A DNA stretch of 43,786 nt from an uncultured Clostridia bacterium (GCA_947089095.1 CAMUJB010000007.1:1-43786); one strand, 5' to 3'. Positions 1 through 42,797 are shown, numbered from the stretch's first letter. Made by a program: numbers and translations. Notes: generated by a model not told the origin, from the sequence alone.

Positions 1-158
1 TTACGAGGTCGATGAAGCAGGAAGCCCATTGGCTTTAGACAATGGGTAGTTCACCTAGAAAAAGCCATACAACGTGCAAAAGAAAAAGGAATTGTTTTAT
101 AAATATTTTTTTAAGAATGGAATTTTTAACCATTTAATTTTAGAAAGGGGAAAAAATT

Positions 159-476: not shown

Positions 477-639
477 ATATTAATAAAATAAATTTTCTTG
501 CTAATAATTTTTACCTGAAATTTCTTAAGATTGAAAACTATATAGAAAATGTAGATAGAAAGAAATATATAAATTTTTTCAATATTTTTAAGAATAAATC
601 TATAAAAAAGCTGTATATTCACAAAGAATTCGAGTAATG

Positions 640-688
640 GATAAAATCCCGGAAACGCTGATAAAATAAAGGGTTCCGGGATTGCTTT
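640..688. terminator. Stem-loop between convergent genes (HTH gene on +, kinase-like gene on -)
   Basis: aatcccggaaac / ggttccgggatt arms (11 bp, 1 mismatch) around a 15-nt loop, followed by gctttatattt. Confidence 0.4.
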
Positions 689-781
689 ATATTTCAAAAT
701 TTCTCACCAGCCATTTTATTTATCCACTCCGCCAGTAAGAATACCAAAATTTTTCTATTATACTTTTTTAATACTTAATAC

Positions 782-1897: not shown

Positions 1898-1926
1898 AAG
1901 CCACCTTTTACTGAATCCTATCTATC

Positions 1927-2175
1927 TTACTTGTTTCCTTGAATCCTATGTCTTCTCTTATACTGCTCCCAATTTCTTATCGCATCCTCTTCTGTCTCAC
2001 CCCCAAATTCTTCATTAATTAAGGTAATCATATAATCCAACATATCCTCCTTAATTCGTGTGGCATTACACTGATTTAAACGTTCTGCCTGTCTGCGTAT
2101 AAATTCTTCATCTGGTAGAGTGTCATCCTCTAAATCGGCTAGAGCATCACACATTTCCAAATCCTGAAATCTCAT
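1927..2175 (-). CDS. Small acidic hypothetical protein (82 aa), co-operonic and upstream of the kinase-like gene
   Basis: Intact ORF rich in D/E with no HTH. A 29-nt gap separates it from the downstream kinase-like gene on the same strand. Confidence 0.4.
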   Translation of the reverse strand: MRFQDLEMCDALADLEDDTLPDEEFIRRQAERLNQCNATRIKEDMLDYMITLINEEFGGETEEDAIRNWEQYKRRHRIQGNK

Positions 2176-2247
2176 CCAATCACCCCATTTTCTATCTATC
2201 TCAATAGCTATCGCCCTTTCTAATATTCCTTTATACTTTTAATCTGA

Positions 2248-2316
2248 AAAAAGGTGCCCTGCCAGCCAATGACAGTATACGATATACTATCCGGTTGGGT
2301 GCACCTTTTTTTTGAT
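2248..2316. terminator. Bidirectional rho-independent terminator separating the NUDIX operon from the kinase-like operon
   Basis: aaaaaggtgccctgccagcc...ggttgggtgcaccttttttttga: a GC stem flanked by an A-run on one side and a T-run on the other. Confidence 0.5.
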
Positions 2317-2329
2317 CTTTTTGTTTTTC

Positions 2330-2842
2330 CTACTCTCTAAAGTCAGAAACAGCAGAACAGTCCTTCTGATCTAATATTTCTTCCTGTGTTGGATAACAAA
2401 TCGCTTCTGTAAGTTTTTCTCCCATATACCGTAATTTTAAAGAAAAATAATTCTGTCTCTCCTCTAAAAGCCGGAAAAATATCCGATCTCCCTCCCAGAG
2501 ATTTAACTGAAATACGTCTTTTTTATTTACCCATGCAAGGGTTCCTTCTGTACATTCTATAGGGGTTCCTTTCCACCGATCTGCAGTAAAAAGATGCATA
2601 TATTCCGTTTCTTGCCCATCCTGAACAAATGTGACCAATCCTCGGTAAAAATACCGGGTTAATGTATAACCGGTTTCTTCCTTTACTTCCCGCAGCATAC
2701 ATTCCTCTGGTGTCTCACCTTCCTGAAATTTTCCTCCAATTCCAATCCATTTCCCCTGATTATTGTCATTGGTCTTTTTATTTCGATACATCATCAGATA
2801 GGTTTCACCTTGCTCTAAATAACATAAAGTTGACAAGTGCAT
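2330..2842 (-). CDS. NUDIX hydrolase (MutT-like)
   Basis: Canonical Nudix box GGKFQEGETPEECMLREVKEETG (G-x5-E-x7-REUxEExGU). Its start codon overlaps the stop of the upstream giant ORF (ATG 15 nt after TAA). Confidence 0.85.
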   Translation of the reverse strand: MHLSTLCYLEQGETYLMMYRNKKTNDNNQGKWIGIGGKFQEGETPEECMLREVKEETGYTLTRYFYRGLVTFVQDGQETEYMHLFTADRWKGTPIECTEGTLAWVNKKDVFQLNLWEGDRIFFRLLEERQNYFSLKLRYMGEKLTEAICYPTQEEILDQKDCSAVSDFRE

Positions 2843-2859
2843 ATCGTTTCTTTCCTTTT

Positions 2860-5800
2860 TTAATTAAAATAACATTTTTTAATTTCACTGGTTGAAATTT
2901 CTTCTAATCCCTGAGCAACTACATACTCTATCATATCAGGCTCTACCGTCCGAATAAATAATAGTGCATCTTCCTTAACATCAATATGAATCTCTTTATA
3001 AAGCACATTTTCAATTGGCATCTGTTCCATCTTAGAATCTGCTATAGGATTGTTGGTATAATAGATACGAACCACTTCTCTTGTAGCCCCTTGGAACGGA
3101 ACCCACTTTTTATACTCAATTTCAGCCGGTGAAAACTTACAGTCAAAATAATGTCTGTGATCTCTTCCTAAATAATAGTGGAAACGGGACTGCTGCAATG
3201 CATCGGTTTCATAATTTTTTTCAATTTTAATTGAACTTCCCGGACGGCTCTTTAACAGTCCATATGCTACTCCTGTTTTTGCATTTGGAACATATTCTTC
3301 TGTATTTTCACTCTCTCCCGTCAGCGGATCAATCAATTCAAAATATGCATTTCCTATTTCATCTGCCATTCTCTTAGATTTGCTGTAATATTCTTCAATC
3401 TTCTTTTGGAACAATTCTTTTACAAATATAGATTTACTGGAATTTCCTGCTAAAAAGATATAAATCTTATTCTCTTCTTTTTTTGTTTTCTCTTTAGATA
3501 AAAACATTTTAATTAAGCATTGGAAGAAACTATCAATTCCTTTTTGAATCCGTTTTTTAATTAATTCTACTAAATCCTGACTGGAAAATTCTAAAATACA
3601 CTGCGGCACAGGTTCTCCATTCATATTGTATAGAGAAACAACAATTCCTTCTTTATCAACTTCATTTTGTGCAGATTCATTGTCTAATTGGTATTTCTTT
3701 CTCCAACCCTGCTCCTGATGCCATAACGGACGCAACTCTTCTTTTAAAATCGACATATTTCTTCTTGCAATCTGAGAATTGATTAATAATGTCTCACTTC
3801 CTGCAAAACTATTCTCTCCAACTGGCAAAGTAAAGGTAATCTTCTTCTCCCGAAATACCTCTAAGTTTTTCTGATATACCTGATAAGCCAGTAATTCCAA
3901 TATATTTTCGCCGCCCAGTGTAACATCCGAATCTGCCCCAAAACATTCTAACACATAGTCATAGGCTTCTCTTTCGTACTCTTCTTCTGTTGCACCTCTG
4001 CAGATTCCAAAATCAAAGTCAGTTGTTCCTCCTCCAAAATCAAAAATTCCATACATAAACTGTTCTGTCTCATCCTTTGGCTCTAGATGACTTTGTTCCA
4101 ACGCTGTTACTGCATATGCTGCCGGCTCGCTGATTCCTAATTTTACCTGGAACCGTTCCATACATTCGGGATCACTCAGTATACTAGAAGGCAGAGATTT
4201 TTTAATTCCTTCATAAAAACTATTGGCTATAAAATCTCTTACATCTTTTGAATATCCAACCGGAAATGTCATTAGATAATTTAAGTAAATACCGTTCCGC
4301 ATATTGTTAATATATAACCCAATATAGTAAGCATACAATTCAATCGGATTGACAATTCCCTCTGTCATCTCAATATGCTCCCCTAAGTAATATTCTTCTT
4401 TTTGCTTATCCTTAATCAGTACACTTCCTTTTTCCCGATTTGCCCACTGTTTTAATTCATTAAAATAGGCATAAAAATCATCCGGCTTACAATTTCGAAA
4501 ATCTTCATAGGCATCATAAGAAACAAAAATATCATTGCAGGAAGTATGCGGTCTGCCAGCTTCTTTTTGATAATCTTCCATAAATTTTTTTACATTTGTA
4601 AATTCAATAATAGTTGGATTTTCGAAATCTTCTTCTTTTACTTCATCACTTAAATTTCCTGTTCCAATTCGAATCGGCACAATCCGGTTCGTAGCATCCT
4701 GACGAACAACGACTGTACTTTTCGTTCCAAAATCAATGCCAACTACACCATTTTTAATATCTAATTTCGGATCTCTTGCAATTAAATTCTCATAACGGAT
4801 TGTCTCACTTTCTGAAAAATTATTCTCTTTTCTGTCTTCCGTCCATTCTAAAGTTTCGGTACCCGATTCTTCACTCTCTTTTCTTGCTTCAAATAATTCC
4901 CAATGTCCTCTGATAATATCAAATAAAATATCTTTATCATATGGTTCTAAACGGCATCTATTTTTATCACAATCTAATAATGTCTGTATTTTTTCCATTT
5001 CTTCGTCTACTTCCCCTTCTCCTTGTATCGCATCTGTTTCTTTTATTTTTTCAATTTCTTCTATATTTTCATTTTCGGCTTTTTCGGTTTCTTTTCGCTC
5101 TTCTGTTTCTTCTGTCTTTTTATTTTCCCTACTTATTATTTTTGTCTCTTCTGCTTTTTCCGTTTTTACCTTCTCTATTTTTTGAATATTTTCTGGTTGC
5201 TGCTGTTCTGCTGCCTTTTCTGGAATTGATTTTAACTGCTTTTGTTGCTCATTAGAACTTTGGTCATTAGAACTTCTTTGCATCTCCTTCTGTTCTGGTA
5301 TTTTATTTTGTAATTCCAACTCCTGCTGATTTTTTAAGTTTTTTGATTCTGCTTTAGAAATTTCTAATTCTATAGATATTTCTGGTTCCGACATCTTAGA
5401 AATTTCAGACATTTCTGATTTATTAACAGATAATAATATCTCTGATTCTTCTAAATTCTCTTGAATTTCTGGCTCTAATACTTCTAATTCTATAGAAATT
5501 GGTTCTTCCTCTACCTCTTCTGCAGCTTCTGATTCTATAGAAATCGGCTCTTCTACTATCTCTTCTGCTTCAAAAGAGATTGGTTCTTCCTCCACCTCTT
5601 CTGCTGCTTCTGATTCTATAGAAATTGGCTCTTCTATTATCTCTTCTGCTTCAAAAGAAATCGGTTCTTCCTCTATCTCTTCTACAGCTTCTGGTTCTAT
5701 AGAAATTGGCTTTTCTACTATCTCTTCTGCTTCAAAAGAAATCGGTTCTTCCTCCACCTCTTCTGCTGCTTCTGATTCTATAGAAATCGGCTCTTCTATT

Positions 5801-7215
5801 ATCTCTTCTGCTTCAAAAGAAATCGGTTCTTCCTCTACCTCTTCTGCTGCTTCTAATTCTATAGAAATCGGCTCTTCTACTATCTCTTCTGCTTCAAAAG
5901 AGATTGGTTCTTCCTCCACCTCTTCTGCTGCTTCTGATTCTATAGAAATCGGCTCTTCTATTATCTCTTCTGCTTCAAAAGAAATTGGTTCTTCCTCTAT
6001 CTCTTCTGCAACTTCTGATTCTATAGAAATCGGCTCTTCTATTATCTCTTCTGCTTCAAAAGAAATTGGTTCTTCCTCTATCTCTTCTGCAACTTCTGAT
6101 TCTATAGAAATCGGCTCTTCTATTATCTCTTCTGCTTCAAAAGAAATTGGTTCTTCCTCTACCTCTTCTGCAATTTCTGGTTCTATAGAAATTGGCTCTT
6201 CCTCTATCTCTTCTGCAGCTTCTGGTTCTATAGAAATCGGTTCTTCCTCTACCTCTTCTGCAACTTCTGATTCTATAGAAATTGGTTCTTCCTCTATCTC
6301 TTCTGCAACTTCTGATTCTATAGAAATTGGCTCTTCCTCTATCTCTTCTGCTGCTTCTGGTTCTATAGAAATCGGTTTTTCCTCTACCTCTTCTGCTGCT
6401 TCTGATTCTATAGAAATCGGCTCTTCTACTATCTCTTCTGCAGGTGCTTGATATAATGAAGATAATTTCGATGTTCTAACTGTTTCTTCCTTCATTAATT
6501 GTTCCGTCTCTTCTAGAACAAGTTCTTTCTTATCCTCCTTTTCCACTATTTCATCCATTTTATTTCTTTGTAAAATAAAATCTTCAAAATCAATATTATG
6601 AAAATTATTACTTAAAAATTGCATCATTTTCCAACTGTCTTTTGAGGTATACAATGCAGATGGCGTTAGACCCATCTTTGCCCAAAGATAGATATCATAA
6701 TTCCAGGATTCTATATCTTTTCTTTTATATTTTTCTTCTACACGATAGATCTGCAAAATTGTTCCCTCTTCATTCTTCTGAAGACGGCGTATTTTTCTAC
6801 GTTCCTCATCATAAACCATGCCATTTTTTAAAAAAATCTTTTTCTTTCGGCATCTTTCTCCAAGTCCGGCAGCTCCAAATGTCTTTGGCATATTAGAAAT
6901 AGGCAGATAAGGAATAATCTGTTCTGCTTCCTCTTCTTTTAAATAATCCCAGACAATCCGCCCAGAATTTATCAAAATCGGACTTCTTTCCGGTCTTTTG
7001 TCTATCCGATAACTATTCTCTAGATACTTTTGTTCCATCGGAATAAAAATGTCTGTAGCCCTATGCTGATACCAGGTTCCTTCCAAACTGACTAATCGAA
7101 TAAATCCATTTACCCAATTACTTGGCGATTCAAAGATCGTGCGAATGTTGGCTTCCATATGGCAGCATTTTTCCCATATCTCTTTTTTCTCCAAGATACT
7201 CCATTTTTTCTCCAT
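2860..7215 (-). CDS. Giant 1451-aa multidomain protein: unknown N-terminal domain, acidic tandem-repeat linker, K/E/Q-rich low-complexity segment, Hsp70/actin-fold ATPase domain, and an unknown C-terminal domain
   Basis: Three Hsp70 NBD motifs are recognisable: VVGIDFGTKSTVV (phosphate-1, compare DnaK GIDLGTTNS), FDFGGGTTDFDFGI (phosphate-2, compare DLGGGTFD), and IFLAGNSSKSIFVKELF (adenosine motif, compare LVGGSTRIP). SD gaggtag precedes the ATG, and the stop TAG of the upstream gene lies inside this SD. Confidence 0.75.
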   Translation of the reverse strand: MEKKWSILEKKEIWEKCCHMEANIRTIFESPSNWVNGFIRLVSLEGTWYQHRATDIFIPMEQKYLENSYRIDKRPERSPILINSGRIVWDYLKEEEAEQIIPYLPISNMPKTFGAAGLGERCRKKKIFLKNGMVYDEERRKIRRLQKNEEGTILQIYRVEEKYKRKDIESWNYDIYLWAKMGLTPSALYTSKDSWKMMQFLSNNFHNIDFEDFILQRNKMDEIVEKEDKKELVLEETEQLMKEETVRTSKLSSLYQAPAEEIVEEPISIESEAAEEVEEKPISIEPEAAEEIEEEPISIESEVAEEIEEEPISIESEVAEEVEEEPISIEPEAAEEIEEEPISIEPEIAEEVEEEPISFEAEEIIEEPISIESEVAEEIEEEPISFEAEEIIEEPISIESEVAEEIEEEPISFEAEEIIEEPISIESEAAEEVEEEPISFEAEEIVEEPISIELEAAEEVEEEPISFEAEEIIEEPISIESEAAEEVEEEPISFEAEEIVEKPISIEPEAVEEIEEEPISFEAEEIIEEPISIESEAAEEVEEEPISFEAEEIVEEPISIESEAAEEVEEEPISIELEVLEPEIQENLEESEILLSVNKSEMSEISKMSEPEISIELEISKAESKNLKNQQELELQNKIPEQKEMQRSSNDQSSNEQQKQLKSIPEKAAEQQQPENIQKIEKVKTEKAEETKIISRENKKTEETEERKETEKAENENIEEIEKIKETDAIQGEGEVDEEMEKIQTLLDCDKNRCRLEPYDKDILFDIIRGHWELFEARKESEESGTETLEWTEDRKENNFSESETIRYENLIARDPKLDIKNGVVGIDFGTKSTVVVRQDATNRIVPIRIGTGNLSDEVKEEDFENPTIIEFTNVKKFMEDYQKEAGRPHTSCNDIFVSYDAYEDFRNCKPDDFYAYFNELKQWANREKGSVLIKDKQKEEYYLGEHIEMTEGIVNPIELYAYYIGLYINNMRNGIYLNYLMTFPVGYSKDVRDFIANSFYEGIKKSLPSSILSDPECMERFQVKLGISEPAAYAVTALEQSHLEPKDETEQFMYGIFDFGGGTTDFDFGICRGATEEEYEREAYDYVLECFGADSDVTLGGENILELLAYQVYQKNLEVFREKKITFTLPVGENSFAGSETLLINSQIARRNMSILKEELRPLWHQEQGWRKKYQLDNESAQNEVDKEGIVVSLYNMNGEPVPQCILEFSSQDLVELIKKRIQKGIDSFFQCLIKMFLSKEKTKKEENKIYIFLAGNSSKSIFVKELFQKKIEEYYSKSKRMADEIGNAYFELIDPLTGESENTEEYVPNAKTGVAYGLLKSRPGSSIKIEKNYETDALQQSRFHYYLGRDHRHYFDCKFSPAEIEYKKWVPFQGATREVVRIYYTNNPIADSKMEQMPIENVLYKEIHIDVKEDALLFIRTVEPDMIEYVVAQGLEEISTSEIKKCYFN
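5470..6450 (-). repeat. Near-perfect 84-nt (45 + 39 nt) tandem repeats inside the giant ORF, encoding EEPISIESE(A/V)AEE(V/I)EE and EEPISFEAEEI(I/V)E units about 20 times
   Basis: The nucleotide repeats ctcttctgc(t/a)gcttctgattctatagaaat(c/t)ggctcttc are almost identical copy to copy. The protein segment is extremely acidic and disordered-looking. Confidence 0.85.
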
Positions 7216-7220
7216 TTTTT

Positions 7221-8006
7221 CTACCTCACAATCACAATCGGCTTTATCACATCATCTTGTATGCTATATCCATTTAAAAGGACTTCCTGCACCACCCCAT
7301 TTACAATACTCTCCGAAGTTTTGATATATTGCCTCGAATCAAACTCATTACCAATCAGTACCTCTATAATCTCATAACGTTCTTTTCTTATATTGGTAAT
7401 ATTATAAACATTGATACATAAATCAAAGAAATTTGCCAATACTCGAATATTTTCCGTTTTTCTATCTGAATTCATAATTTCATCTTTAATAAAATTCCAT
7501 AATTGCTTAATTCCATTTTTATCTTTTCCTAAAGCAATAAAAGATTTAATATCCCATGAACCACATAAATTTTTTAAATAAGACTTTTGGCTTTTCTCCA
7601 ATTTCGAAATCCCCTGCCAAATCTCACTAATCTCCTCTAATGGTTCAAACTCCTTTTTCTGTTCCTGAAGCTGTTGATACAATTCTTCCTTCGAATGTTG
7701 AATCTCTCTCTTTTCCTTTTCCAAAACCACATTTTCTTTTTCTAATGCAGCATTTTCCTTTTCCAAGACAGCCTTTTCTTTTTCCAATGTCCGATAGTTT
7801 TCATGTAATCTTTCACACTCCAGATGTGCCTCTTCCAACTGATGATAAAGCAGATCCTTTTCTTTTTCCAATGCTTCTATCCTACGTTGAAATTCCCTCT
7901 CCTGTTCCTGATCTTTTTTTACAATTTTCTTAATATCCTCCTGAACCTCCCCATCTTTTAACAACTCACGCAAAATACGTTTTACACTAATTTGTATCTC
8001 ATCCAT
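7221..8006 (-). CDS. Coiled-coil protein (261 aa) with a C-terminal globular domain; first gene of the giant-ATPase operon
   Basis: Residues 30-130 are heptad-like and E/K/L-rich (LEKEKAVLEKENAALEKENVVLEKEKREI). The stop codon lies 5 nt from the next ATG, consistent with translational coupling. Confidence 0.5.
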   Translation of the reverse strand: MDEIQISVKRILRELLKDGEVQEDIKKIVKKDQEQEREFQRRIEALEKEKDLLYHQLEEAHLECERLHENYRTLEKEKAVLEKENAALEKENVVLEKEKREIQHSKEELYQQLQEQKKEFEPLEEISEIWQGISKLEKSQKSYLKNLCGSWDIKSFIALGKDKNGIKQLWNFIKDEIMNSDRKTENIRVLANFFDLCINVYNITNIRKERYEIIEVLIGNEFDSRQYIKTSESIVNGVVQEVLLNGYSIQDDVIKPIVIVR

Positions 8007-8373
8007 TTTCCAATCTCCTATTTTTTATGCTCCGTCACTTCCCACCTAAAATAAATTTTTATATTCCTAAGCGAAATCATAACATCTCAATTATTCTATC
8101 ACACAATTTCCAAATATACAACATAAGAAAAAACATTCTGAGAAGAAAACACATGGTTCTTAATTTCATACCAATTTTTAGTCAATCCATACCAATTTTA
8201 ACCTATCAAGGAAGTAGCAGAGCAGATTCCGAATTTCCTTTGACCAAATAATCAATCTTAAAAAACTCTGAAAGGCAAATTTTACAGTCAAATTTCGATA
8301 AAATAATAGATGACTTTTAACAGAATGTCCTGTAGAATAAAATAAAAATTCAAAATCTAAGGAGTAAAAAATA

Positions 8374-8907
8374 ATGGAAATAAAAACATTTGAAACTTCA
8401 TATTTAAAAGAGACGAAAGCCGCTTTAAAGAGTGCCTTTTTTCACAAAGGCAGTCACGAATTTTTCAATGAATGGGAATTTGCGGAAACAGTTCTGAAAT
8501 CAGACGGATATTTGCCGGAGTTATGTGTAATTGCTTTAGACGGAGAAACGGTGATTGGCTATAACATACTGACTAAAGCTGAAATCGGCGGTCAGCCTGG
8601 GCTGGCTTTGGGACCTTTAGGAGTGCGAAAAGAAGATCAAAATACAGGAGTAGGTTTTGCTCTTGTAAAAGAATGTATAAAAAGAGCCATAGAATTACAG
8701 TATCCTTGGATTGTTCTGCTAGGAGGAGAATACTATTCCCGATTTGGATTTGAGAATGGCAGACTTTATGGAATTACTGTATCAGATAATGAATTTGAGA
8801 ATGACCATTTACAGATTATATTTCTAGATGAATCGGTAAAAAATACGACTTCTGGAAAACTGATATATTGTGATGCATTTTATGATTCGGAAGGAAATTT
8901 ATTATAA
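8374..8907 (+). CDS. GNAT-family N-acetyltransferase
   Basis: Acetyl-CoA binding motif region QNTGVGFALVKECIKRA and an appropriate size of 177 aa. Confidence 0.8.
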   Translation: MEIKTFETSYLKETKAALKSAFFHKGSHEFFNEWEFAETVLKSDGYLPELCVIALDGETVIGYNILTKAEIGGQPGLALGPLGVRKEDQNTGVGFALVKECIKRAIELQYPWIVLLGGEYYSRFGFENGRLYGITVSDNEFENDHLQIIFLDESVKNTTSGKLIYCDAFYDSEGNLL

Positions 8908-8933
8908 AAACTACAGATACCCCCTACCTGACA

Positions 8934-8990
8934 CAAGGAAGTCCCCCCACCTCTTTCGCCTTCACGGCTTCGAAACGGGGGACTTCCTTG
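8934..8990. repeat. Copy A1 of the palindromic repeat family A (caaggaagtcccc ... ggggacttccttg hairpin), in inverted orientation relative to A2
   Basis: Perfect 13-14 bp stem. The internal approx. 30 nt is the reverse complement of the A2 internal segment, with substitutions. It lies between the convergent GNAT and BlaR1-like genes. Confidence 0.6.
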
Positions 8991-9001
8991 ATAGGTTAAA
9001 A

Positions 9002-10612
9002 TTACCTTTCGTTACTTACAGGTATTTCCTCTGTTTCCCCAACAGCCCGTTCTAACAGTTCTGTTATTTCTTCCTCCGTCATATAAGAAACACCTGTAAT
9101 CTCTCCTTCTGCATTTCGAATAATTTTAATGCTTGCCGTTCCTTTTGAATTGATATCAAGCATATAAAACGAACTGTCAGGACGCTGATCCTTAATAATG
9201 TTGATTAATTCACCCTGATAATAATAAGATTTCCCATTTTTTTCAATACCATAAGCTGCATACTCCTCAATAAGTGCGGTATCGTCCCAATCCCAGTCTT
9301 TATCGTCCCAGTCAAACCCCCAATCTTCATCATTCCAATCCCCATCGTCCCAATCAAACCCCCAATCTTCATCATTCCAATCCTTATCGTCCCAATCAAA
9401 CCCCCAATCTTTATTATTCCAATTCCCATCCTCCCAGCCAAAATTCCAATTTTTATTATTTCCATTCCAGCCAATATCCAAATTTTTATCAGAAACATAG
9501 CTATCCATTTCATGTCTTTTCTGTTCTGATATTAAAATTTCGCTTTTTTCAGCAGAATCGGAATGGTTTGCTGAAGCAGTTGGATAAACACCAACAAAAG
9601 CTGCTCCAAAGAGTAAACACAGTGTAGATATACCTGTAAAAATCCGAACCGTCTTTGTTTTTTTCTTAAAATTCATAATTGCACCTAACCTTTCTTTTAA
9701 TTGTTTCGCTCCCTCAGTCAAAGTTACCGATGTGAACGATCCTTTACGGAGATGATCGATCTTTAAAAATAAAAGCAAGACATCTCCATACTCACGTCTT
9801 ACGCTGTCATCAAGCATGGCTATAACTGCTTCATCACATGACAATTCACACGCTTTATTTACTTCTTTTTCAAGCAAATAAACAAACGGATTAAACCAAT
9901 GAATACAAATTACAAGCTGTATCAGCCATTTATAAAACATATCCCGCCGTTTGTAATGATTTAATTCATGCATAAAAATATAAGATAACTCTTTCTCCTT
10001 CCATTCTCTAACAGGCAAAATAATACTAGGACGAAAGAAACCAATCATAATGGGCGATGAAATCAAAGAATTACTATATAATTCTACTCTCGTTTTCATA
10101 CTCTGTTTTTCTTCCAAATCAGACAGCAAATTCAATATTTTTACATCTGATATCTCTGTATTGCCAACTTTCATATATTGAATAAAGCCTTGATAAATTG
10201 TCACTTTGCGGACAAAAAGAACTACTGCAAATACTGACCAAATAAAAAAGAGACACGCATATCTATCAAATAACTTCTGTTTAGCAGCATTATTTACAAT
10301 TATATTTTCATTTTCTAGTACCTGTGGTCGTATTGGTTCGTTGTTATCTGTATTTACTACAGCAGACAGCTTAGAACCTGCAGAATTCTCATTTGTTATA
10401 ACAACTGTACGAAACAGTTGAAACAAGCTTCCTACATTTATTGTATCAGGTGTAAAAGGAAGCAAAAACCGCAGCACAACAATGATCCAAATATAATACT
10501 GCCAACGCCTGCTGAACTTATTTTTATATAATGGTTTGAATCCTAAAATAAGCAATAGCAACAGTGTACCGGAAATAGACAGTGACAATACTATTTTCAT
10601 AAATTCATCCAT
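9002..10612 (-). CDS. BlaR1/MecR1-family M56 peptidase-type membrane sensor with a W/D-rich tandem-repeat region
   Basis: N-terminal TM helices, then the M56 zinc motif FMHELNHYKRRD (HExxH). Four repeats of DWGFDWDD(K/G)DWNDE follow. No BlaI-like repressor gene is adjacent. Confidence 0.75.
   Translation of the reverse strand: MDEFMKIVLSLSISGTLLLLLILGFKPLYKNKFSRRWQYYIWIIVVLRFLLPFTPDTINVGSLFQLFRTVVITNENSAGSKLSAVVNTDNNEPIRPQVLENENIIVNNAAKQKLFDRYACLFFIWSVFAVVLFVRKVTIYQGFIQYMKVGNTEISDVKILNLLSDLEEKQSMKTRVELYSNSLISSPIMIGFFRPSIILPVREWKEKELSYIFMHELNHYKRRDMFYKWLIQLVICIHWFNPFVYLLEKEVNKACELSCDEAVIAMLDDSVRREYGDVLLLFLKIDHLRKGSFTSVTLTEGAKQLKERLGAIMNFKKKTKTVRIFTGISTLCLLFGAAFVGVYPTASANHSDSAEKSEILISEQKRHEMDSYVSDKNLDIGWNGNNKNWNFGWEDGNWNNKDWGFDWDDKDWNDEDWGFDWDDGDWNDEDWGFDWDDKDWDWDDTALIEEYAAYGIEKNGKSYYYQGELINIIKDQRPDSSFYMLDINSKGTASIKIIRNAEGEITGVSYMTEEEITELLERAVGETEEIPVSNER
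9270..9480 (-). repeat. 42-nt coding tandem repeats (DWGFDWDDxDWNDE units) inside the BlaR1-like gene
   Basis: Repeated gtcccaatcaaaccccc(a)atcttcatcattccaatcc units can be read directly in the sequence. Confidence 0.65.
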
Positions 10613-34955: not shown

Positions 34956-36110
34956 TTACTTTTTCCATACCTCTAATATTGCAGCAATTCGATGCCAATA
35001 AGTATGTCCCTCTATCAGTTTCTGATATGCCGCCTCCTTTACACGTTCTCTTTCTTCTATATGATTTCCATATCGTACAATCGCACGTGAAAACTCTGCA
35101 GGATTTGTAAAATATACTAATGTTTCATCCCTCTTAAAAAAATAAGCATAATCCCTCTGAAACCCAACAATAGGAAAACCTCCTGCTGCTATTACTTCCA
35201 ACGTATCCCTTGGAATACCATTATGTAAAGTATGAGGTGCTAATACCAAAGTAAATTCTTTTCCGGCATAAATTTTCTTCCTCGCTATTTCATCTTCCAC
35301 CAAAGCCTTTTTTTTAGAATTACAATCTGGAAACTCTCCGTTAGAATAAATTGTCATAATGGAAGCAAAATTTTGTAAAAATATTTGCTGCTGTATTCTA
35401 GTACATACAGGTGCAAAATATCGATCTGCCACAAAAAGTTTCTGCATTTCTAAAAGAAGATTCTCTGGAAGGATATTTCCCTTTAAAAACTCCTGTTGTA
35501 CCCGAAGCAATAATCCATTTTCTAGAATATATGCCCCATATAATACCCTTTGTGCATGAATAAAAGCATCTAGATAACCTTTACTGTAAATGGACATTTC
35601 CTTTGTATTTAAAACATCCTCTGGGCATTTTGCAAGAAAGCATACTTCTCTTTCCATAGGCACAATTTCTCGTACACTATCTACTTCTACAGCATCAGGC
35701 AGAAAAAAGGCATTTGTAATTCCTAATTGCCATAGTTTTTCTACCAAATAACTATCACATACAAAAAAATAATTATATCCATTCCGCACAGAAGCTGTAT
35801 ATAAATCAAAATTAGGAAGCTGTAAGATCCAACTGCAATAAGGAATGGCTTCTCTTTGGCAAAAATCCGATATAAACGATAAAAAATTAACAGAAAACAC
35901 CATATCACTCGCTGCTGCTCGAATCTGCTCTTTCAAGGAAAGCAAAAGAGATTCCACTTTTTCTTTCTGTTGTATTTCCTGTTTTTCTTCCCAATTCTGT
36001 ATCAATTCATGTGAAAGCAGAATTGTATTTACCAAAATTCCCATCTCTTTCCATGCTTTTAGAATAGCTTTATCATAAGGATAGCCCCATATAAGATATG
36101 TTAGCTTCAT
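34956..36110 (-). CDS. CgeB-like (GT1-related, DUF3880-type) glycosyltransferase, paralog 1
   Basis: C-terminal GT-B half (LEVIAAGGFPIVGFQRDYAYFF...). Start set at MKLTYLIWGYPYDKAIL, parallel to the paralog N-terminus MKLFIYDWNFITKYDL. Confidence 0.55.
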   Translation of the reverse strand: MKLTYLIWGYPYDKAILKAWKEMGILVNTILLSHELIQNWEEKQEIQQKEKVESLLLSLKEQIRAAASDMVFSVNFLSFISDFCQREAIPYCSWILQLPNFDLYTASVRNGYNYFFVCDSYLVEKLWQLGITNAFFLPDAVEVDSVREIVPMEREVCFLAKCPEDVLNTKEMSIYSKGYLDAFIHAQRVLYGAYILENGLLLRVQQEFLKGNILPENLLLEMQKLFVADRYFAPVCTRIQQQIFLQNFASIMTIYSNGEFPDCNSKKKALVEDEIARKKIYAGKEFTLVLAPHTLHNGIPRDTLEVIAAGGFPIVGFQRDYAYFFKRDETLVYFTNPAEFSRAIVRYGNHIEERERVKEAAYQKLIEGHTYWHRIAAILEVWKK

Positions 36111-36133
36111 AATAATTCCTCGCTTATCTGTCT

Positions 36134-37339
36134 TTATTTTGATAACTTGTTTTTCAAACCTGAGAGTTCCCATATTCGATTTAATTGATGTTCATAACTA
36201 AACTTATCTTTGACAATTTTATAACCGTTTTGTCTAATCTTTTCTGCTTCCTTTTCATGACTTAGATAATATTTGCACTTATCTAATGCCTCTTCCATAG
36301 AACTATATATCAAAAGATCTTGTCCGTCTTTAAAATATTCATTTAAATCTTCTTGATAATTTGTCATTGCTAATGCATGACAGCCCATAATATCAATCAC
36401 TCGCTGAGGGATACCTCGGCGAATATTTCGCAATGTAATATTTAAATTTATTTTACTACACTTAAATACAAGCGGCATATCATATCTATAATCTACAGGT
36501 TCACATATCTTTACATTTGGAAGTTTCGGACTATTTATGGTAAACAACTTTACATGATAATATTTTGCCAATAGTGTAAGTAAAAGTATTCTCTCTTTAT
36601 TGGTTACTGCCTTTAAAAGAAAAGCAATCAATCCCCAACTTTTTACTTCTTCTACATCATGAAAAAAATTATGATTCAAATTTTTCAATAAAGCTTCTGT
36701 TACTTTTTGATTGCATAGACGTTTAATAAGATTTTCATTAATTAATTCTTGAATAAAATTCGTACCATAAACATTTAACTGTATATTAATCAGTGCTGCA
36801 ATATAGCCTGCACCATACTCATCAAACAGGGGAAACATTTTATCCATATCTGATTGATAAAGCTGCCCAACAAAAGAAATATCTGCATGATATTTCATCC
36901 TTCCCATAGGAGTAGGTTTCATTTGACTTAAACGTCTAGCATCAGCTGCCAAAGGTAAATAATAAAAAATATTTTTTACTCCATGCTCCTGAAATTCCTC
37001 ATATTCCGAAGAATCAAATAAAAAAATACGATTGGTGTCAAAAAAATGAGTTTCATTTGCTATGCCTAAGGCTGGACTATCATATGTCCAACAAATATAA
37101 AGTATATTTCTTGCATGTGCTGCCTCTGCCAACTCCAAAAAAAAATTAATAGAAAAAATTGCATCATATTTTTTATTATCTAAGGCTTTTTCCAAATCCT
37201 TCCGAAACTGCTTACTTTGTGAATTTACTCTAGGATTTGACTTTGAATTAAATAAATCATATTCAATCCCCTGTTTCTGCATTGCTCTATACAAATCATA
37301 CTTTGTAATAAAATTCCAATCATAAATAAATAGCTTCAT
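36134..37339 (-). CDS. CgeB-like glycosyltransferase, paralog 2
   Basis: Same architecture as the neighbouring gene (GIPQRVIDIMGCHALAMTNYQEDLNEYFKDGQDLLIYSS). Typical of flagellin glycosylation islands in Firmicutes. Confidence 0.55.
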   Translation of the reverse strand: MKLFIYDWNFITKYDLYRAMQKQGIEYDLFNSKSNPRVNSQSKQFRKDLEKALDNKKYDAIFSINFFLELAEAAHARNILYICWTYDSPALGIANETHFFDTNRIFLFDSSEYEEFQEHGVKNIFYYLPLAADARRLSQMKPTPMGRMKYHADISFVGQLYQSDMDKMFPLFDEYGAGYIAALINIQLNVYGTNFIQELINENLIKRLCNQKVTEALLKNLNHNFFHDVEEVKSWGLIAFLLKAVTNKERILLLTLLAKYYHVKLFTINSPKLPNVKICEPVDYRYDMPLVFKCSKINLNITLRNIRRGIPQRVIDIMGCHALAMTNYQEDLNEYFKDGQDLLIYSSMEEALDKCKYYLSHEKEAEKIRQNGYKIVKDKFSYEHQLNRIWELSGLKNKLSK

Positions 37340-37349
37340 ACTATACTCC

Positions 37350-37400
37350 TACAAAATAAAGAATAAATAACAATAGGCGGTGTAAAAACCGCACCGCCTA
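37350..37400 (-). terminator. Rho-independent terminator downstream of flagellin
   Basis: Minus strand ataggcggtgcggtttttacaccgcctat followed by tgttatttattctttattttg. Confidence 0.5.
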
Positions 37401-37448
37401 TAGATATTCATACCATTTAATCTAATCTGTTTTTTACAACAATTACTA

Positions 37449-39032
37449 TTAACCAAGAAGAGAAAGAACTCCTTGATTGCTCTGATTTGCTTGAGCTAAC
37501 ATAGATTGACCAGCTTGAGCCAAAATATTATTATTCGCATATCTTACCATTTCAGTAGCCATATCCGTATCACGAATTTGACTTTCAGCACTTGTCGTAT
37601 TCTCCACTACATTATCTAAGTTATTAATTGTATGCTCTAAACGGTTTTGAACAGCACCAAGGGCAGCTCTTTGATCAGAAACTTTATTCAATGCCGCTTT
37701 AATTGTTTCAATTGCATTTAATGCATTTGTATCATCTTCTCCATTTACCTTTAAACCAGTGACACCAATTGCCTTAGCACTCATAGATTTTATATCAAGA
37801 GAAATCTGATTATTGGTTGTAGCATCTGCACCTACATGAAGATTCAAAGTTAAAGCACCTACATCAAATTTATCTGTATAACTTAGCAGTCTATCCACGT
37901 CAGCCTGTGTTGCCAACTGACGGTCAGTTGCACCCTCTCCTGTCTTTAAATACAGTTCTGCATTAGGATCTAACTTACCATTGTTGTTAATATATTTATC
38001 TAAACCATTCGCAGCAATCTCATTACCATCCCTATCAATAAATTGAACTACGCCCTTACTTGTATAGTCAGAATAAGCGACAGAATCTACAGCAAGTTTT
38101 ACAGGAGCAAGCGTAGAATAATACTTCGATATATCTGCAGCAGTCGCACCAATATCTGTTCCTATCTCTTTCCTATTTCCATCTGAATCATATACTTCTG
38201 TCTTCAGCTTATAATGTGCACCAGTATCAGTTACAGTATTACTAGCAATTGCAACTGCTTGACTCTTTATATCACCTGTTCCAGCACTAGAAGAATAATA
38301 AGTTGCTGTTGAATCATATGCTTCCCCAGAAGCAACTTGATAATATTCATCTCCCACTTTCTTCAAATACTTACCTGTACTATCCGTGAAAACTGCTTCC
38401 GAATTATTTAAGAAATTACCAGAATCACTAGATGCAATCGCTACTCCATAGGTTGCACCTGTACTGTCACTATAATATACTTTTGTTGAATCAACTGCTG
38501 TTTTCAACGTCCCTTTCGATAAAGTCTTAACGGTATTATCTTCTACATAGTAAAGGTCTTGGCTAATCACATCTACTTCTTTATATTGGAAATTTGTGTC
38601 TTTTGCAGCATTTACATCCCCTTTTAACAAATAAGTTTCATTAAACTTCGTTGTCTCCGATACACGATCGATTTCTGTTACCAACTGATCGATCTCAGCC
38701 TGAATCGCATCTCTATCAGAAGAAGAATTCGTTCCATTTGCTGCCTTTACTGCCAATTCATTCATTCTCTGAAGCATATCCTGTACTTCTGTCAACGCAC
38801 CTTCTGCTGTCTGTACGGCACTGATTCCGTCCTGTGCATTAGAAGAAGCCTGTGTCAGTCCTCGGATCTGTTTTCTCATTTTTTCGGAAATTGCCAAACC
38901 TGCTGCATCGTCTGCTGCACGATTGATCTTATAACCAGATGATAATTTTTCTGTGGATTTTGCCTGAGCCTTGGTTGTGATACCTAGCATACGATTAGAA
39001 TTCATTGCTGTAAGATTGTGTTGTACTACCAT
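37449..39032 (-). CDS. fliC: Flagellin with a large variable central domain
   Basis: Conserved N-terminal D0/D1 ([17 protein letters not shown] ... [17 protein letters not shown]) and C-terminal D1/D0 ([16 protein letters not shown] ... [25 protein letters not shown]). SD aaggagg precedes the ATG. Confidence 0.9.
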
Positions 39033-39296
39033 AAAATATACCTCCTTGTAATACGGCTTGTTTCATCATTTTTCTTTTCCCTTGCCGTTTCTTTGTTATG
39101 CGGTCAACTCCATTTGCCGCTTTGGTAAGAAAAGTCTTACCTCATTTCTTAAAAAATTTATCTCGGATTTCCACCAAATATCATTTCTTTTGATTTCTTT
39201 CCGAATTTAATAATCCGAATCACATCCCGCTTTTGGGCCCGATTGTTGCAGACTGCTTTCGGTTATTAACCATAACAAATAACCTCTCTTCTTCTT

Positions 39297-39551
39297 TTAG
39301 CTTCCTGCCTTCGAAGAAGATTTCTTCTTTCGAAACCGTTCTGCCAATTCCGGTTCTGCATAATATTGAGGAAGAGATCCCCTCTCTTCTTCCGGCACGT
39401 TCTGTTCCATCACTTTACTTCTCACTACACCGACTTCCTTTGGTGCATCAATCAGAATTCGAAGATGGCTTTTACTGCCTCCTAAAAATGCAATCTTAAT
39501 ATTATCCCCTATCATCAGGTATTCTTCTGTACTTAGAGTCAGTCTTAACAT
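39297..39551 (-). CDS. csrA: Carbon storage regulator CsrA (flagellin-mRNA translational repressor) with a C-terminal extension of about 25 aa
   Basis: MLRLTLSTEEYLMIGDNIKIAFLGGSKSHLRILIDAPKEVGVVRSKV aligns with the CsrA consensus (MLxLTRxxGExxxIGDxIxIxVL...NAPKEV). It lies upstream of flagellin as in Bacillus, but no fliW is adjacent. Confidence 0.8.
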   Translation of the reverse strand: MLRLTLSTEEYLMIGDNIKIAFLGGSKSHLRILIDAPKEVGVVRSKVMEQNVPEEERGSLPQYYAEPELAERFRKKKSSSKAGS

Positions 39552-39584
39552 CTAAAAACCTCCTTGTTTTCTCCATGTCCTCTG

Positions 39585-39620
39585 TGCCAATATGAAAATG
39601 CAACATTTGTTAGTAAAATG
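39585..39620. repeat. Palindromic 15-6-15 site 1 (aaaatgcaacattt-gttagt-aaaatgttgcatttt); candidate recombinase core site or operator
   Basis: Perfect 15-bp arms around the 6-nt spacer gttagt. It lies between divergent csrA and the recombinase gene. It matches the inverse of site 2 (40383-40419) at 33 of 36 positions. Confidence 0.55.
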
Positions 39621-39664
39621 TTGCATTTTTAAGAAAGCAAAATTCAACGAACGGAGGATCTATC

Positions 39665-40255
39665 ATGAGCACAACACAGCCTATTAAAAGCAAAGACGCA
39701 CTGAACCAATTTAAAAATTATTATTTGCTGCAAAAACCTCAGCCAAGAAACTATACCCTGATTATATTGGGACTAAATACAGCACTGCGAATCTCCGATA
39801 TTCTCACATTAAAATGGAACGATATCTATGATGACCATACTAAAACCATGAAAAAACATTTAGAAGTAATAGAACAAAAGACCGGAAAATCCCGCACGAT
39901 TGCATTAAACCGCTCTATCTGCACCACCCTAAAAAACTACCTTTCGTATTCCTTCCAGGAAAAACCCTATGAAAAAGAGCAGTATCTCTTCTTAAGTCAG
40001 AAAGGAAAGAATGAGCCAATCAGTCGTTCTCAAGCCTACCGAATTATCTGTACTGCTGCCAAAGCATCTGGACTGGATCAACATATCAGCTGCCACTCTC
40101 TAAGAAAGACATTCGGTTATCATGCGTGGAAACAGGGAACCCCTCCAGCCCTTTTAATGGATCTTTACAATCACTCCTCCTACAGCATTACCAAGCGATA
40201 TTTAAGTATTGAACAAGACGAAAGAGATGAAGTGTATTTAAAAATTACACTCTAA
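39665..40255 (+). CDS. Small tyrosine site-specific recombinase (FimB/FimE-sized, 196 aa)
   Basis: Catalytic residues in order: R (ALRISDIL), H-x-x-R (HSLRKTFGYH), H (LYNHSSY), Y (ITKRYL). SD ggagga lies 7 nt upstream. A strong terminator hairpin aaatgccgcttatc/gataagcggcattt follows at 40272-40307. Confidence 0.8.
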   Translation: MSTTQPIKSKDALNQFKNYYLLQKPQPRNYTLIILGLNTALRISDILTLKWNDIYDDHTKTMKKHLEVIEQKTGKSRTIALNRSICTTLKNYLSYSFQEKPYEKEQYLFLSQKGKNEPISRSQAYRIICTAAKASGLDQHISCHSLRKTFGYHAWKQGTPPALLMDLYNHSSYSITKRYLSIEQDERDEVYLKITL

Positions 40256-40271
40256 TCCAATCACAAAAAGA

Positions 40272-40307
40272 AATGCCGCTTATCGACAGAGGATAAGCGG
40301 CATTTCC
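40272..40307 (+). terminator. Rho-independent terminator of the recombinase gene
   Basis: gaaatgccgcttatcgacagaggataagcggcatttc followed by a T/A-rich run. Confidence 0.6.
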
Positions 40308-40382
40308 CTTGAAAAATAAAAAATTTAAAAAAATTCAAAAACGCTATAAAGTATTTTATAAAAACACCGATATAAGGAATAT

Positions 40383-40419
40383 AAAAATACAACATTTTAC
40401 TAACAAGTGTTGTATTTTT
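40383..40419. repeat. Palindromic site 2 (aaaaatacaacatttt-actaac-aagtgttgtattttt), an inverted copy of site 1
   Basis: Its spacer actaac is the reverse complement of the site 1 spacer. The two sites bracket an approx. 760-bp segment that contains the recombinase gene. Confidence 0.55.
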
Positions 40420-40583
40420 ATTTTTTATAAAGTATCTTCCTTTTCTATTCTACTAAACAGCATAAACAAAAGCAAATATTTTTATACATATCTATCATAT
40501 CTTATAAAATTCAAGAAAATTTTTCATATTTTTCCTAAATTTTCTGTATTTTACAACACATTATACGAATCAAATATTCTATC

Positions 40584-42797
40584 TCATTCACTAATAGAGT
40601 GCTGAAACAAAATCCAAGTACTAATAAAATAACAAATCAGCAGTAACATAAGAATTCCCCCAGTTGCACCTATCTGTATCAGCAGTGCCCTACTCCCAAT
40701 ATATGCCGAAATTTCTGCCGATATCGTCTGAACAAAGTAAACAAGCACAACGACAGCAGCCCCTACTGCAACAACAACGGGAAGTCCAAACCACACTCCT
40801 AACTGCCGAAATACAAGTCTTTTGATTCTCTGCTCTTCCACTCCCAATTTTCGAAGTACGGAAAAACGATAGCGATACTGCCCTGCATCCAAAAGCTGCT
40901 GCAGAGAAAGTATGGTAAGACAGATTACCATCAACACAACGGCAGCATAAATCATCCCCGCCTGCAGAACAAAATTATTGGCCTTTGTACCATTTATCTG
41001 CAGGGTACGCAAACGAATTCCATATGCTGTGCCATTCTCTGTCCGCTCGGGATATTCTTTTATAAATTCCTTTTCCAATTTACAAGCATCCGCATAAGAA
41101 ATCCCTCTCTCTGTTAGAATATAGCGATCCCGCATAACCGGAAGCAAACTTTCACAAATCGAATCTGGAAAGACATACAAAACATTGGTATAGGAATTGT
41201 AAACCGTTTGTCCAATTTCATACTGATAATAAGACTCTTCCGAAAGCGTCAATTCCCCGGCATCTGTTAGGATATGGGTATGTTCTCTAAGAAAATCGTC
41301 CCGTTCCTCCTTTGCTGCAACGGATTTCCACTGTGTTGTAAATTCATTCTCCTCTAAAAAAATCGGTTCTTTCCCCAACATCGTCAGTATCCTATTATAA
41401 TTACTAAGAGAAATCGCCACAGCAGGAAATTCATATTTCTTCCGATTATGAAACTCTTCTTTCTTAGGCAAATACAGATAAAAAGTACAATCAGAAGCAA
41501 TCTCGATCCCATGCTCTCCCAAAAAATCACTTGCCAGCAAATAGTCATCCTGCGGCAAATATTCTTCTTGATAGACCTGATTATATCTGGAAAAAATCTG
41601 CACATCATACATCGAACGGCTGTCCAAATATCCAGAAGCCCAACCTGTTAAAATAGGTGCCGCAATAAACATCACAATCGCAAGTACTAAAGTAATACTG
41701 ATCAGCGTCATTGTTTTACTGGTGGTATTTAATTTCGAAATAATCTGTCCCCAAAAAAACAAATTTTCTCCATTATACTTATGTTCCGGTGACTTTTCCT
41801 TCCATGCGGCAATCTGACCGCTTGCCAAATAGATCAAATCACAGATAAAAAACAGCAGATCCGCCAAAAGAAACACCAGATATTGATTTTTTATCCCCGA
41901 CCCCAGCGGCAGATAATATTGATGGATTATCCCTGGTACACTGGCTGCCAAAAAAGCATTACAAACCGAACACATCAACAGTCCCAAAAGTAAGGAAGAA
42001 TCCTTTCTTTTTTTCCTTCGAACAATCCACAATAAAAAGCAGCCTAACGTAACAGCCGGAAAAAAAAGATTCCCCCAGAACATGACCTGTACAGGAACAG
42101 CAAAACGGCTGTCATAATAAAACCAAACTTTCCGTATCCCAGTTATAAGTCTCCAAAGCATAAATCCTTCGAAAATCCTCACCACTGCAAAAATCCAACG
42201 GCTCTTCTTTAATTCAGGCTCATTCTCTCTATCTGCCGAAAGCATCGCAACAATTTTCGTCTTTCGAATCATATAAGTATTCAAACTTCCCACTGCAAAA
42301 AAACTTAAAATAAAAAACACTGCCGTCAGCAATACCGTATCTGGAAACAGTGTCCATGCCAACTGATACGTTTTCCCATAAGAAGTCAATAACATTGCCG
42401 TAATAAACTGAGAACAAAACACACCAAAAAAAATTCCCAGTCCGATAGAAATCATTCCCATTATCAACGTTTCCGCAAAGAAAAGCCCCGCAACCGTCTT
42501 TTGCTCCATTCCCATAATTAACTGAAGGGCAAACTCTTTCTGCTTCCGCTGCAGCATATATCGATTCACAAACCAGATTAAAAAAGCCAAACACAATGTA
42601 ATCATACAGACGGCCGCTTTCATTCCGTCACTAAGCATCGTAAAATCATACTCACTTCCAATATCCGGCTTATAATATCTGCTGGAAATAGACAAAAACG
42701 AATAAAACAGCGTTACACATATCGTCATAGTCACAACATAAACTAAATAATCCCTTACCGACCGCTTAGCATTTCGAAAAACCAGTTTCACATACAT
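40584..42797 (-). CDS. BceB-type ABC transporter permease (FtsX-like, 10 TM, with a large extracellular loop)
   Basis: 737 aa. N-terminus MYVKLVFRNAKRSVRDYLVYVVT and a 4TM-loop-6TM topology typical of BceB/VraG peptide-sensing permeases. Overlaps the upstream ATPase gene. Confidence 0.8.
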   Translation of the reverse strand: MYVKLVFRNAKRSVRDYLVYVVTMTICVTLFYSFLSISSRYYKPDIGSEYDFTMLSDGMKAAVCMITLCLAFLIWFVNRYMLQRKQKEFALQLIMGMEQKTVAGLFFAETLIMGMISIGLGIFFGVFCSQFITAMLLTSYGKTYQLAWTLFPDTVLLTAVFFILSFFAVGSLNTYMIRKTKIVAMLSADRENEPELKKSRWIFAVVRIFEGFMLWRLITGIRKVWFYYDSRFAVPVQVMFWGNLFFPAVTLGCFLLWIVRRKKRKDSSLLLGLLMCSVCNAFLAASVPGIIHQYYLPLGSGIKNQYLVFLLADLLFFICDLIYLASGQIAAWKEKSPEHKYNGENLFFWGQIISKLNTTSKTMTLISITLVLAIVMFIAAPILTGWASGYLDSRSMYDVQIFSRYNQVYQEEYLPQDDYLLASDFLGEHGIEIASDCTFYLYLPKKEEFHNRKKYEFPAVAISLSNYNRILTMLGKEPIFLEENEFTTQWKSVAAKEERDDFLREHTHILTDAGELTLSEESYYQYEIGQTVYNSYTNVLYVFPDSICESLLPVMRDRYILTERGISYADACKLEKEFIKEYPERTENGTAYGIRLRTLQINGTKANNFVLQAGMIYAAVVLMVICLTILSLQQLLDAGQYRYRFSVLRKLGVEEQRIKRLVFRQLGVWFGLPVVVAVGAAVVVLVYFVQTISAEISAYIGSRALLIQIGATGGILMLLLICYFISTWILFQHSISE

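Follow-up and report, generated by a model that had tools for sequence, protein, structure and literature searches.

In the Hin/H segment of Salmonella enterica (hixL, hixR, fljBA), the recombinase gene and an outward promoter lie inside the invertible segment, and in one orientation this promoter drives a flagellin operon that also encodes a repressor of flagellin expression, FljA, which binds the fliC promoter (PMC9368917). Here we describe a locus of like design in a 43,786-nt stretch of DNA from an uncultured Clostridia bacterium (GCA_947089095.1, CAMUJB010000007.1:1-43786), referred to as the window and numbered from its first letter. A gene for a 196-aa tyrosine recombinase is bracketed there by two inverted palindromic sites beside csrA and a flagellin gene, and we consider it about 80% probable that this constitutes a self-contained DNA-inversion switch for the flagellin operon. 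An earlier interpretation made from the sequence of the window alone (the sequence-only reading) had proposed a Hin-like arrangement, with the recombinase inside its own invertible segment controlling csrA and flagellin. This proposal is supported by the sites, the promoter, the neighbouring genes and the inversion found in a relative; the present analysis adds the segment's far-end promoter, the OFF orientation of the window and a widespread family of such cassettes.

Since the two systems are unrelated in sequence, the resemblance to Hin is convergent, and the locus appears to be a tyrosine-recombinase counterpart of the Hin switch that arose independently. Hin is a serine invertase needing Fis, HU and an enhancer, whereas the window encodes a tyrosine recombinase with Xer/lox-like sites (arms of about 10 nt, 7-nt centre). 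Hin toggles two flagellins, whereas the switch of the window would be an ON/OFF switch for one. The place of FljA is taken here by CsrA, with the gene order reversed; CsrA binds RNA, and its role as a repressor would be analogous to that of FljA.

Escherichia coli fimS with FimB and FimE likewise relies on single-domain tyrosine recombinases of about 200 aa, and the locus of the window would, like fimS, be an invertible-promoter ON/OFF switch for a surface appendage. However, the recombinase gene of the window lies inside the segment, its sites are 27-nt palindromic cores whereas those of fim are 9-bp repeats, and its promoter is of the sigma-28 type. The flagellar (RecV) and cwpV switches of Clostridioides difficile share with the locus the Clostridia background, a tyrosine recombinase and, as proposed here, flagellar control by inversion; orientation acts there, and would act here, on transcript elongation or termination in the leader. 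In C. difficile the flagellar switch is part of the early flgB leader and has no promoter inside, RecV acts in trans, and termination is Rho-dependent (PMC7446863). RecV is encoded elsewhere and serves several switches; in contrast, the cassettes described here are private to a flagellin gene and have their own recombinase, a promoter inside the segment and an apparent intrinsic terminator on the OFF side. As in Xer/dif and Cre/lox, two inverted binding arms flank an asymmetric crossover region (6-8 nt) identical in both partners, but unlike Xer the recombinase has no N-terminal core-binding domain, and the sites are inverted around its own gene instead of lying at the replication terminus.

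A full-text literature search returned no description of a flagellin inversion switch in Lachnospiraceae. The word 'recombinase' is absent from the study that analysed Roseburia and Eubacterium flagellin promoters (Neville 2013, PMC3720852), and large inverton catalogues may contain instances without comment.

Recombination sites, recombinase and candidate promoter

Recombination site 1, on the flagellin side (39595-39629), is a perfect palindrome of two 14-nt arms (AAAATGCAACATTT and AAATGTTGCATTTT) around a 7-nt centre; its 27-nt core, TGCAACATTTGTTAGTAAAATGTTGCA, spans 39599-39625 with the centre GTTAGTA at 39609-39615. Site 2, on the non-flagellin side (40384-40418), has arms with one mismatch and the core TACAACATTTTACTAACAAGTGTTGTA at 40388-40414, with the centre TACTAAC at 40398-40404. 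Because the centres are reverse complements, the sites stand in inverted orientation, and on the minus strand site 2 differs from site 1 at 3 of 35 nt. The sequence-only reading was right about both palindromes and their inverted match; its coordinates were about 10 nt off, and the arms are 14+7+14 nt rather than 15+6+15 nt from 39585. The inverted repeat reaches 43 nt at 88% identity (39589-39631 and 40382-40424), with two copies only in the window and none expected from 100 shuffles. The core pattern TRCAAC-N15-GTTGYA occurs at these two places only in the 43.8-kb window. Measured from centre to centre, the predicted invertible segment covers about 790 bp (39612-40401) and corresponds to a segment that is inverted in a relative. 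It holds a single gene (39665-40255, plus strand) and a promoter motif (40347-40373), and after inversion the left junction is predicted to read ...GCCAATATGAAAATGCAACATTTGTTAGTAAAATGTTGTATTTTATATTCCTTATATCGGTG.

The same layout recurs across Lachnospiraceae. In a locus set built from one genome per GTDB species (at least 587 loci, the best 80 of which were fetched), TGCAAC-N15-GTTGCA cores of 26-27 nt flank the recombinase on both sides, 666-1227 bp apart, in 65 of 80 loci by the strict pattern, and a relaxed scan recovered the two-site layout in at least 70. The arm positions are nearly invariant, whereas the central 7 nt take 41 different sequences. Nevertheless, the centres of the two partner sites are identical in inverted orientation in 63 of the 65 loci and in direct orientation in none, and sites paired across different loci by shuffling match at 3.2 of 7 centre positions. 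Conserved binding arms around an asymmetric, partner-matched centre are the established layout of the dif, lox and FRT crossover sites. The palindromes of the family share this layout, which is accounted for by neither a terminator nor an operator.

The recombinase (39665-40255, plus strand) consists of a catalytic domain only. It matches PF00589 (Phage_integrase) over residues 14-182 with an E-value of 7.9e-32 and 110.8 bits against a cut-off of 27.1; this is its sole significant Pfam domain, and it bears no signature of a serine recombinase. The bracketed segment with this one gene had been predicted beforehand, as had the full catalytic set: R42, K72, H144, R147, H170 and Y179 are invariant in 14 homologues (59-86% identity). 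Their spacing agrees with that of XerD, and the catalytic positions align with FimB and FimE. In an AlphaFold (AF2) model with a mean pLDDT (predicted local distance difference test) of 78 and a C-terminal 28 residues of low confidence, the top Foldseek matches were the catalytic domains of XerA, XerD, lambda Int and Tn1549 Int, each with probability 1.00; the best profile and fold matches overall are XerA, XerD and XerC. In length the protein falls with the short single-domain enzymes FimB (200 aa) and FimE (198 aa). Identity is 34% to FimB and 27% to FimE over 144-155 aa, and the NCBIfam models PRK09870 (cut-off 221) and PRK09871 (cut-off 222) gave 58.9 and 54.3 bits, so that on sequence grounds it is only a distant relative of these two. 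No NCBIfam family cut-off was reached, those of XerC, XerD and XerA being likewise far above the scores. More than 7,700 homologues were found at E <= 1e-10, nearly all of 192-196 aa and the named ones from Lachnospiraceae.

A candidate out-pointing promoter of the sigma-28 (FliA/SigD) type lies at 40347-40373 on the plus strand, composed of TAAA (40347-40350), a 15-nt spacer and aCCGATAT (40366-40373). The pattern TAAA-N14-16-CCGATA has a single strict match in the window (40347-40372, plus strand), 15 nt inside site 2 and facing outward. Compared to the consensus TAAA-N15-GCCGATAT, the motif agrees at 4 of 4 and 7 of 8 positions with exact spacing. The consensus TAAA-N15-CCGATAT has been quoted for flagellin genes of Roseburia, Eubacterium and Butyrivibrio (PMC3720852). 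Moreover, 63 of 66 loci carry an equally directed strict or one-mismatch sigma-28 match 18-25 nt inward of the far site, and the remaining 3 carry the motif at altered spacing. We infer that the promoter is active and sigma-28 dependent. On the minus strand of the spacer between csrA and flagellin no sigma-70-like site was detected, T[AT]AA-N14-16-CCGATA was absent from all 65 csrA-flagellin spacers searched, and a further relaxed -10 element yielded a sigma-28 motif in 1 of 66 such gaps, none of which held a sigma-70 match of at least 10/12. Judged by these motifs, csrA-flagellin lacks a recognisable promoter.

The sites form hairpins of 14-17 bp (-16.6 to -20 kcal/mol) that are more stable than those of any shuffled sequence. 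The site-2 hairpin (-16.6 kcal/mol, z -4.7) is followed by the T-run TTTTTATTTTTTAT (40415-40428, plus strand), together with which it resembles an intrinsic terminator that would stop the promoter's transcript in the OFF state; a stable hairpin and then a U-run, here TTTTTATTTTTT, is the expected form of such an element. A simple terminator scan did not call site 2 because its stem is A/U-rich with few G-C pairs. In the window the tail past the stem is TTTTTATA on the non-flagellin side and CATATTGG, without a U-run, on the flagellin side. This asymmetry holds for the family: tails with at least 5 T among 8 nt occur in 45 of 65 loci on the non-flagellin side versus 1 of 65 on the flagellin side (mean T in the 8-nt tail 5.1 versus 1.4; Wilcoxon p = 1.4e-11). 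Therefore, a transcript from the promoter should stop at once when OFF and read on when ON, and the non-flagellin-side site probably doubles as a terminator. That the sites might be bidirectional terminators had been raised as an alternative; the T-run after the non-flagellin-side site agrees with it, but terminators do not explain the conserved arms and the covariation of the centres.

These elements suggest the following mechanism. The 196-aa recombinase would bind the arms (TGCAAC...GTTGCA) that are conserved in both 27-nt core sites, and strand exchange within the identical 7-nt centres GTTAGTA would flip the segment of about 790 bp that carries the recombinase gene and, at its far end, the outward sigma-28 type promoter. 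In the OFF state the promoter would point away from csrA-flagellin and its transcript would enter the site-2 hairpin and U-run and should end there; without a promoter of their own, csrA, flagellin and probably also the downstream glycosyltransferase genes would then be silent. In the ON state the inverted promoter would face csrA, the first gene downstream, at about 90 nt, and the hybrid site on the csrA side would lack the U-run, so that csrA-flagellin would be transcribed as a late flagellar (sigma-28) operon.

Inversion in relatives and the state of the window

Inversion at these sites occurs in relatives. Contigs of one species from several mouse-gut samples encode a protein identical to P0140, the recombinase of locus L061. 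Among ten listed contigs 8 are OFF, with flagellin and csrA divergent from the recombinase gene, and 2 (L193 and L199) are ON, with csrA-flagellin downstream of it. Alignment of L191 with L193 gave a reverse block at 62-3479 (99.6%), a forward block at 3451-4189 (98.6%) and a second reverse block at 4161-7579 (96.1%); the junctions coincide with the two 27-nt sites, so that the two contigs differ by inversion of the site-bounded segment only. Since polymorphic outer arms stay with the flanks while inner arms move with the segment, the exchange took place within the centre TGGGGGA. An Acetatifactor pair, L086 and L048 (97% identical), gave the same inversion picture. Four loci of the set (L013, L061, L075 and L086) show the opposite arrangement, in the order promoter, site, csrA, flagellin.

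The window itself represents the OFF state, because its promoter faces away from csrA. It is identical to ERZ13657768 NODE_149 over the 10,122 bases compared, and the contig is also carried by the samples ERZ14231454 and ERZ27298413, among others. The left junction of the window in either orientation had no match in the metagenome collection of the Joint Genome Institute (JGI), which evidently lacks these organisms; a generic promoter-plus-site pattern retrieved one short contig there, L099.

Several observations weigh against an operating switch in this species. All listed contigs of the species were OFF, 8 of 8 in a look-up with the recombinase and 6 of 6 with csrA, and among the contigs listed the close relative P0002 was found only OFF, as were two other species (P0078 and P0151). 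The promoter is so far a consensus match, and no promoter of the recombinase gene itself was identified. The distance from site to start codon is only 24-33 nt in several relatives, where this promoter must either overlap with the site or be placed beyond the segment, and recombinase expression would therefore depend on orientation. An ON transcript would have to cross a 14-bp site hairpin (-17 to -20 kcal/mol) followed by UUUU, which could attenuate it. Furthermore, relatives of the P0022 type have lost a site and look decayed or locked. Flipping of the copy in the window is thus deduced from its intact parts and may be rare.

On a rival explanation, the cassette comes from a functional flagellin switch but is locked or decayed in the species of the window, where it would no longer invert at an appreciable rate, with flagellin permanently silent or expressed from an unrecognised promoter. 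The uniform orientation in the species and its closest relative, and the existence of decayed family versions such as the P0022 loci, favour this explanation. However, the recombinase protein is identical on 78 contigs with all catalytic residues kept, both sites retain perfect centre identity and near-consensus arms, and promoter and terminator tail are intact. Moreover, each look-up covered 21 contigs, the longest only and with similar places collapsed, so that minority orientations could escape; as assemblies report the majority orientation only, a minority ON population would not show. We regard a locked switch as unlikely, albeit the strongest of the rivals.

Much less probable still is the explanation that the palindromes are operators or terminators and that the recombinase-fold protein acts mainly as a DNA-binding regulator, comparable to the SPbeta repressors MrpR and YopR. 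Both of these are among the distant fold matches of the model, the sites form stable hairpins, the far one with a T-run, and a weak sigma-70-like match ahead of the recombinase gene overlaps with site 1. Yet terminators conserve structure and not sequence, whereas here TGCAAC/GTTGCA is nearly invariant and the centres covary in inverted orientation only; the catalytic residues are invariant, and relatives show inversion at these very sites. An additional, minor role in autoregulation or termination would fit the inversion switch as well.

The least credible alternative, also raised by the sequence-only reading, supposes that a small integrative or mobile cassette with the recombinase inserted by csrA, displaced fliW and has no regulatory role. 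The module does occupy varying chromosomal positions between species, and distant relatives are found on IMG/VR contigs, where some have a comparable lone palindrome ahead of the gene. But inverted sites can only invert a segment and cannot release it, about 60 of 80 loci keep the cassette linked to csrA-flagellin, a conserved flagellar-type promoter would be its cargo, and it is the whole flagellin-csrA-switch module that changes position, not the recombinase cassette alone. In those loci csrA and then flagellin lie just outside the near site and, as in the window, their transcription leads away from the recombinase gene. The opposite flank is unrelated and variable housekeeping DNA (rpoA, rplQ, argG and gpmI among others), and across about 60 species the module beside csrA-flagellin was found at differing chromosomal positions, which speaks against displacement of fliW by an integrated cassette.

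Variant cassettes and flagellin display in the gut

Some family members depart from the layout of the window. In L073 (34-1058) and L082 (4709-5951) the cassette lies between two divergent flagellin genes without csrA, and the 5' ends and leaders of these flagellins are identical over 84 nt (L073) and 108 nt (L082). By this arrangement, the two would be two-flagellin toggles instead of ON/OFF switches, alternating flagellins as the Hin segment does. In L067 (4747-4932) both sites are upstream of the recombinase gene and enclose a 132-bp piece with a sigma-28 motif facing csrA, which is the fimS layout, with the recombinase outside the promoter segment. In ten of ten contigs with the P0022 recombinase (L212-L221, 69% identical), the gene immediately precedes that of a 601-aa flagellin; only a single site is recognisable, and both csrA and the sigma-28 motif are missing. 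We considered these loci as evidence of an inversion to the ON state and rejected them for their single site and missing promoter motif.

Several genomes contain two or three cassettes, which in Acetatifactor aquisgranensis stand in tandem, and in 5 of 6 multi-cassette genomes the centres differ within the genome. Petralouisia muris is a further carrier of the cassette. Because recombination is known to require identical centres, such cassettes would be kept from recombining together; partner specificity appears to be set by the 7-nt centre. In L048 (A. aquisgranensis DSM 110981) the tandem flagellin-csrA-switch cassettes lie within 3000-9083, and L086 has one where L048 has two. The second recombinase of L048 is matched by two separate stretches, 7763-8146 and 8151-8315, and may be frameshifted.

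Segments of 1.1-1.9 kb, compared to about 0.7 kb elsewhere, were found in L009 (4922-6089), L053 (4792-6072), L042 (414-2373) and L060 (4950-6944); the extra DNA falls between the recombinase gene and the promoter. Among more distant relatives, L111 and L112 (54% identity) have csrA-flagellin downstream of the recombinase gene. In some of the IMG/VR contigs L113-L124 (39-48% identity) a single palindrome, TGTAAC...GTTACA, lies about 30-230 nt upstream of it. These relatives on predicted viral contigs may point to where the cassette came from.

Lachnospiraceae flagellins are widely regarded as dominant microbiota antigens, both as TLR5 ligands and as CBir1-type antigens associated with Crohn's disease. 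The cassette probably lets gut Lachnospiraceae switch this immunogenic flagellin on and off. A conserved, self-encoded switch would make flagellin display by abundant commensals phase-variable, and gene presence in metagenomes would then not predict expression. The orientation of the cassette is readable from existing shotgun data and could be related to host state. In addition, a recombinase of about 190 aa, 27-nt sites and at least 41 natural centre variants form a compact natural toolkit.

A wider scheme, which we put forward tentatively and consider rather doubtful as a whole, is multi-locus antigen variation of flagellin in gut Lachnospiraceae, with a private cassette and private centres for each of several flagellin genes in a genome. 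A cassette-linked CsrA paralogue, comparable to FljA, would silence the mRNAs of the other flagellins and thereby restrict display to one type at a time, and most copies would be OFF in the gut under host pressure from TLR5 and immunoglobulin A (IgA). Repeated ...CCCTGC... or ...GCCGCCTTGCA... motifs were observed in the 30 nt on the csrA side beyond the near site in L015 (4880-4909), L021, L026 and other loci. These motifs, GCAGGGAGG on the csrA strand, could be candidate GGA-type CsrA-binding sites in the leader.

Genes around the proposed switch

Gene order around the switch is flagellin, csrA, site 1, recombinase, site 2, FtsX permease and ATP-binding cassette (ABC) ATPase. The putatively controlled gene encodes a flagellin of 527 aa (37449-39032, minus strand; Flagellin_N 4.7e-43, Flagellin_C 7.2e-27). 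csrA (84 aa; 39297-39551, minus strand; PF02599 1.3e-16), the conserved neighbour of the near site, is separated from the flagellin gene by a 264-nt spacer (39033-39296, minus strand) that would form a long flagellin leader and has no recognisable promoter. Downstream of flagellin, profile matches identified two glycosyltransferase-like genes (DUF3880 plus Glyco_trans_1_2; 34956-37339, minus strand), which by strand and spacing probably belong to the same operon. A radical-SAM gene follows to the left, and farther left are PNPase and the Rnf complex.

No flagellar structural genes were found within the 43.8-kb window. The csrA-flagellin-glycosyltransferase island thus stands alone between PNPase/Rnf and the ABC transporter, and the earlier description of a flagellar locus that ends abruptly at the switch is misleading. 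The 113-nt gap between csrA (39297-39551) and the recombinase gene (39665-40255), which holds site 1, had been given correctly, as had the ABC permease as the next gene. The permease, of the FtsX type, lies to the right of site 2 (40584-42797, minus strand). Of the stated absence of fliW, one part stands: the gap between csrA and the recombinase gene holds no open reading frame, hence fliW is not adjacent, and no hidden Markov model search for fliW was run across the whole window.

Behind the recombinase stop codon lies a perfect 15-bp G+C-rich hairpin (40270-40306; -25.1 kcal/mol, z -7.7) with a T-run on the minus strand only, where it was called terminator-like. It may block antisense read-through from the convergent ABC operon. 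No Rfam family came near threshold within 38800-40800.

In the species of the window two flagellin/glycosyltransferase allele sets were observed, while the switch is nearly identical in all strains. The comparison covered window positions 34956-39032 against L001, L005 and L008 and against L002-L004, L006 and L007; set a combines the 527-aa flagellin with glycosyltransferases of 401 and 384 aa, and set b a 529-aa flagellin with enzymes of 409 and 386 aa. In L007 (3785-5368) and L206 (3020-4603), both from one sample, the flagellin is called as two products of 88 and 438 aa, which suggests inactivation by a frameshift or nonsense mutation beside an intact switch.

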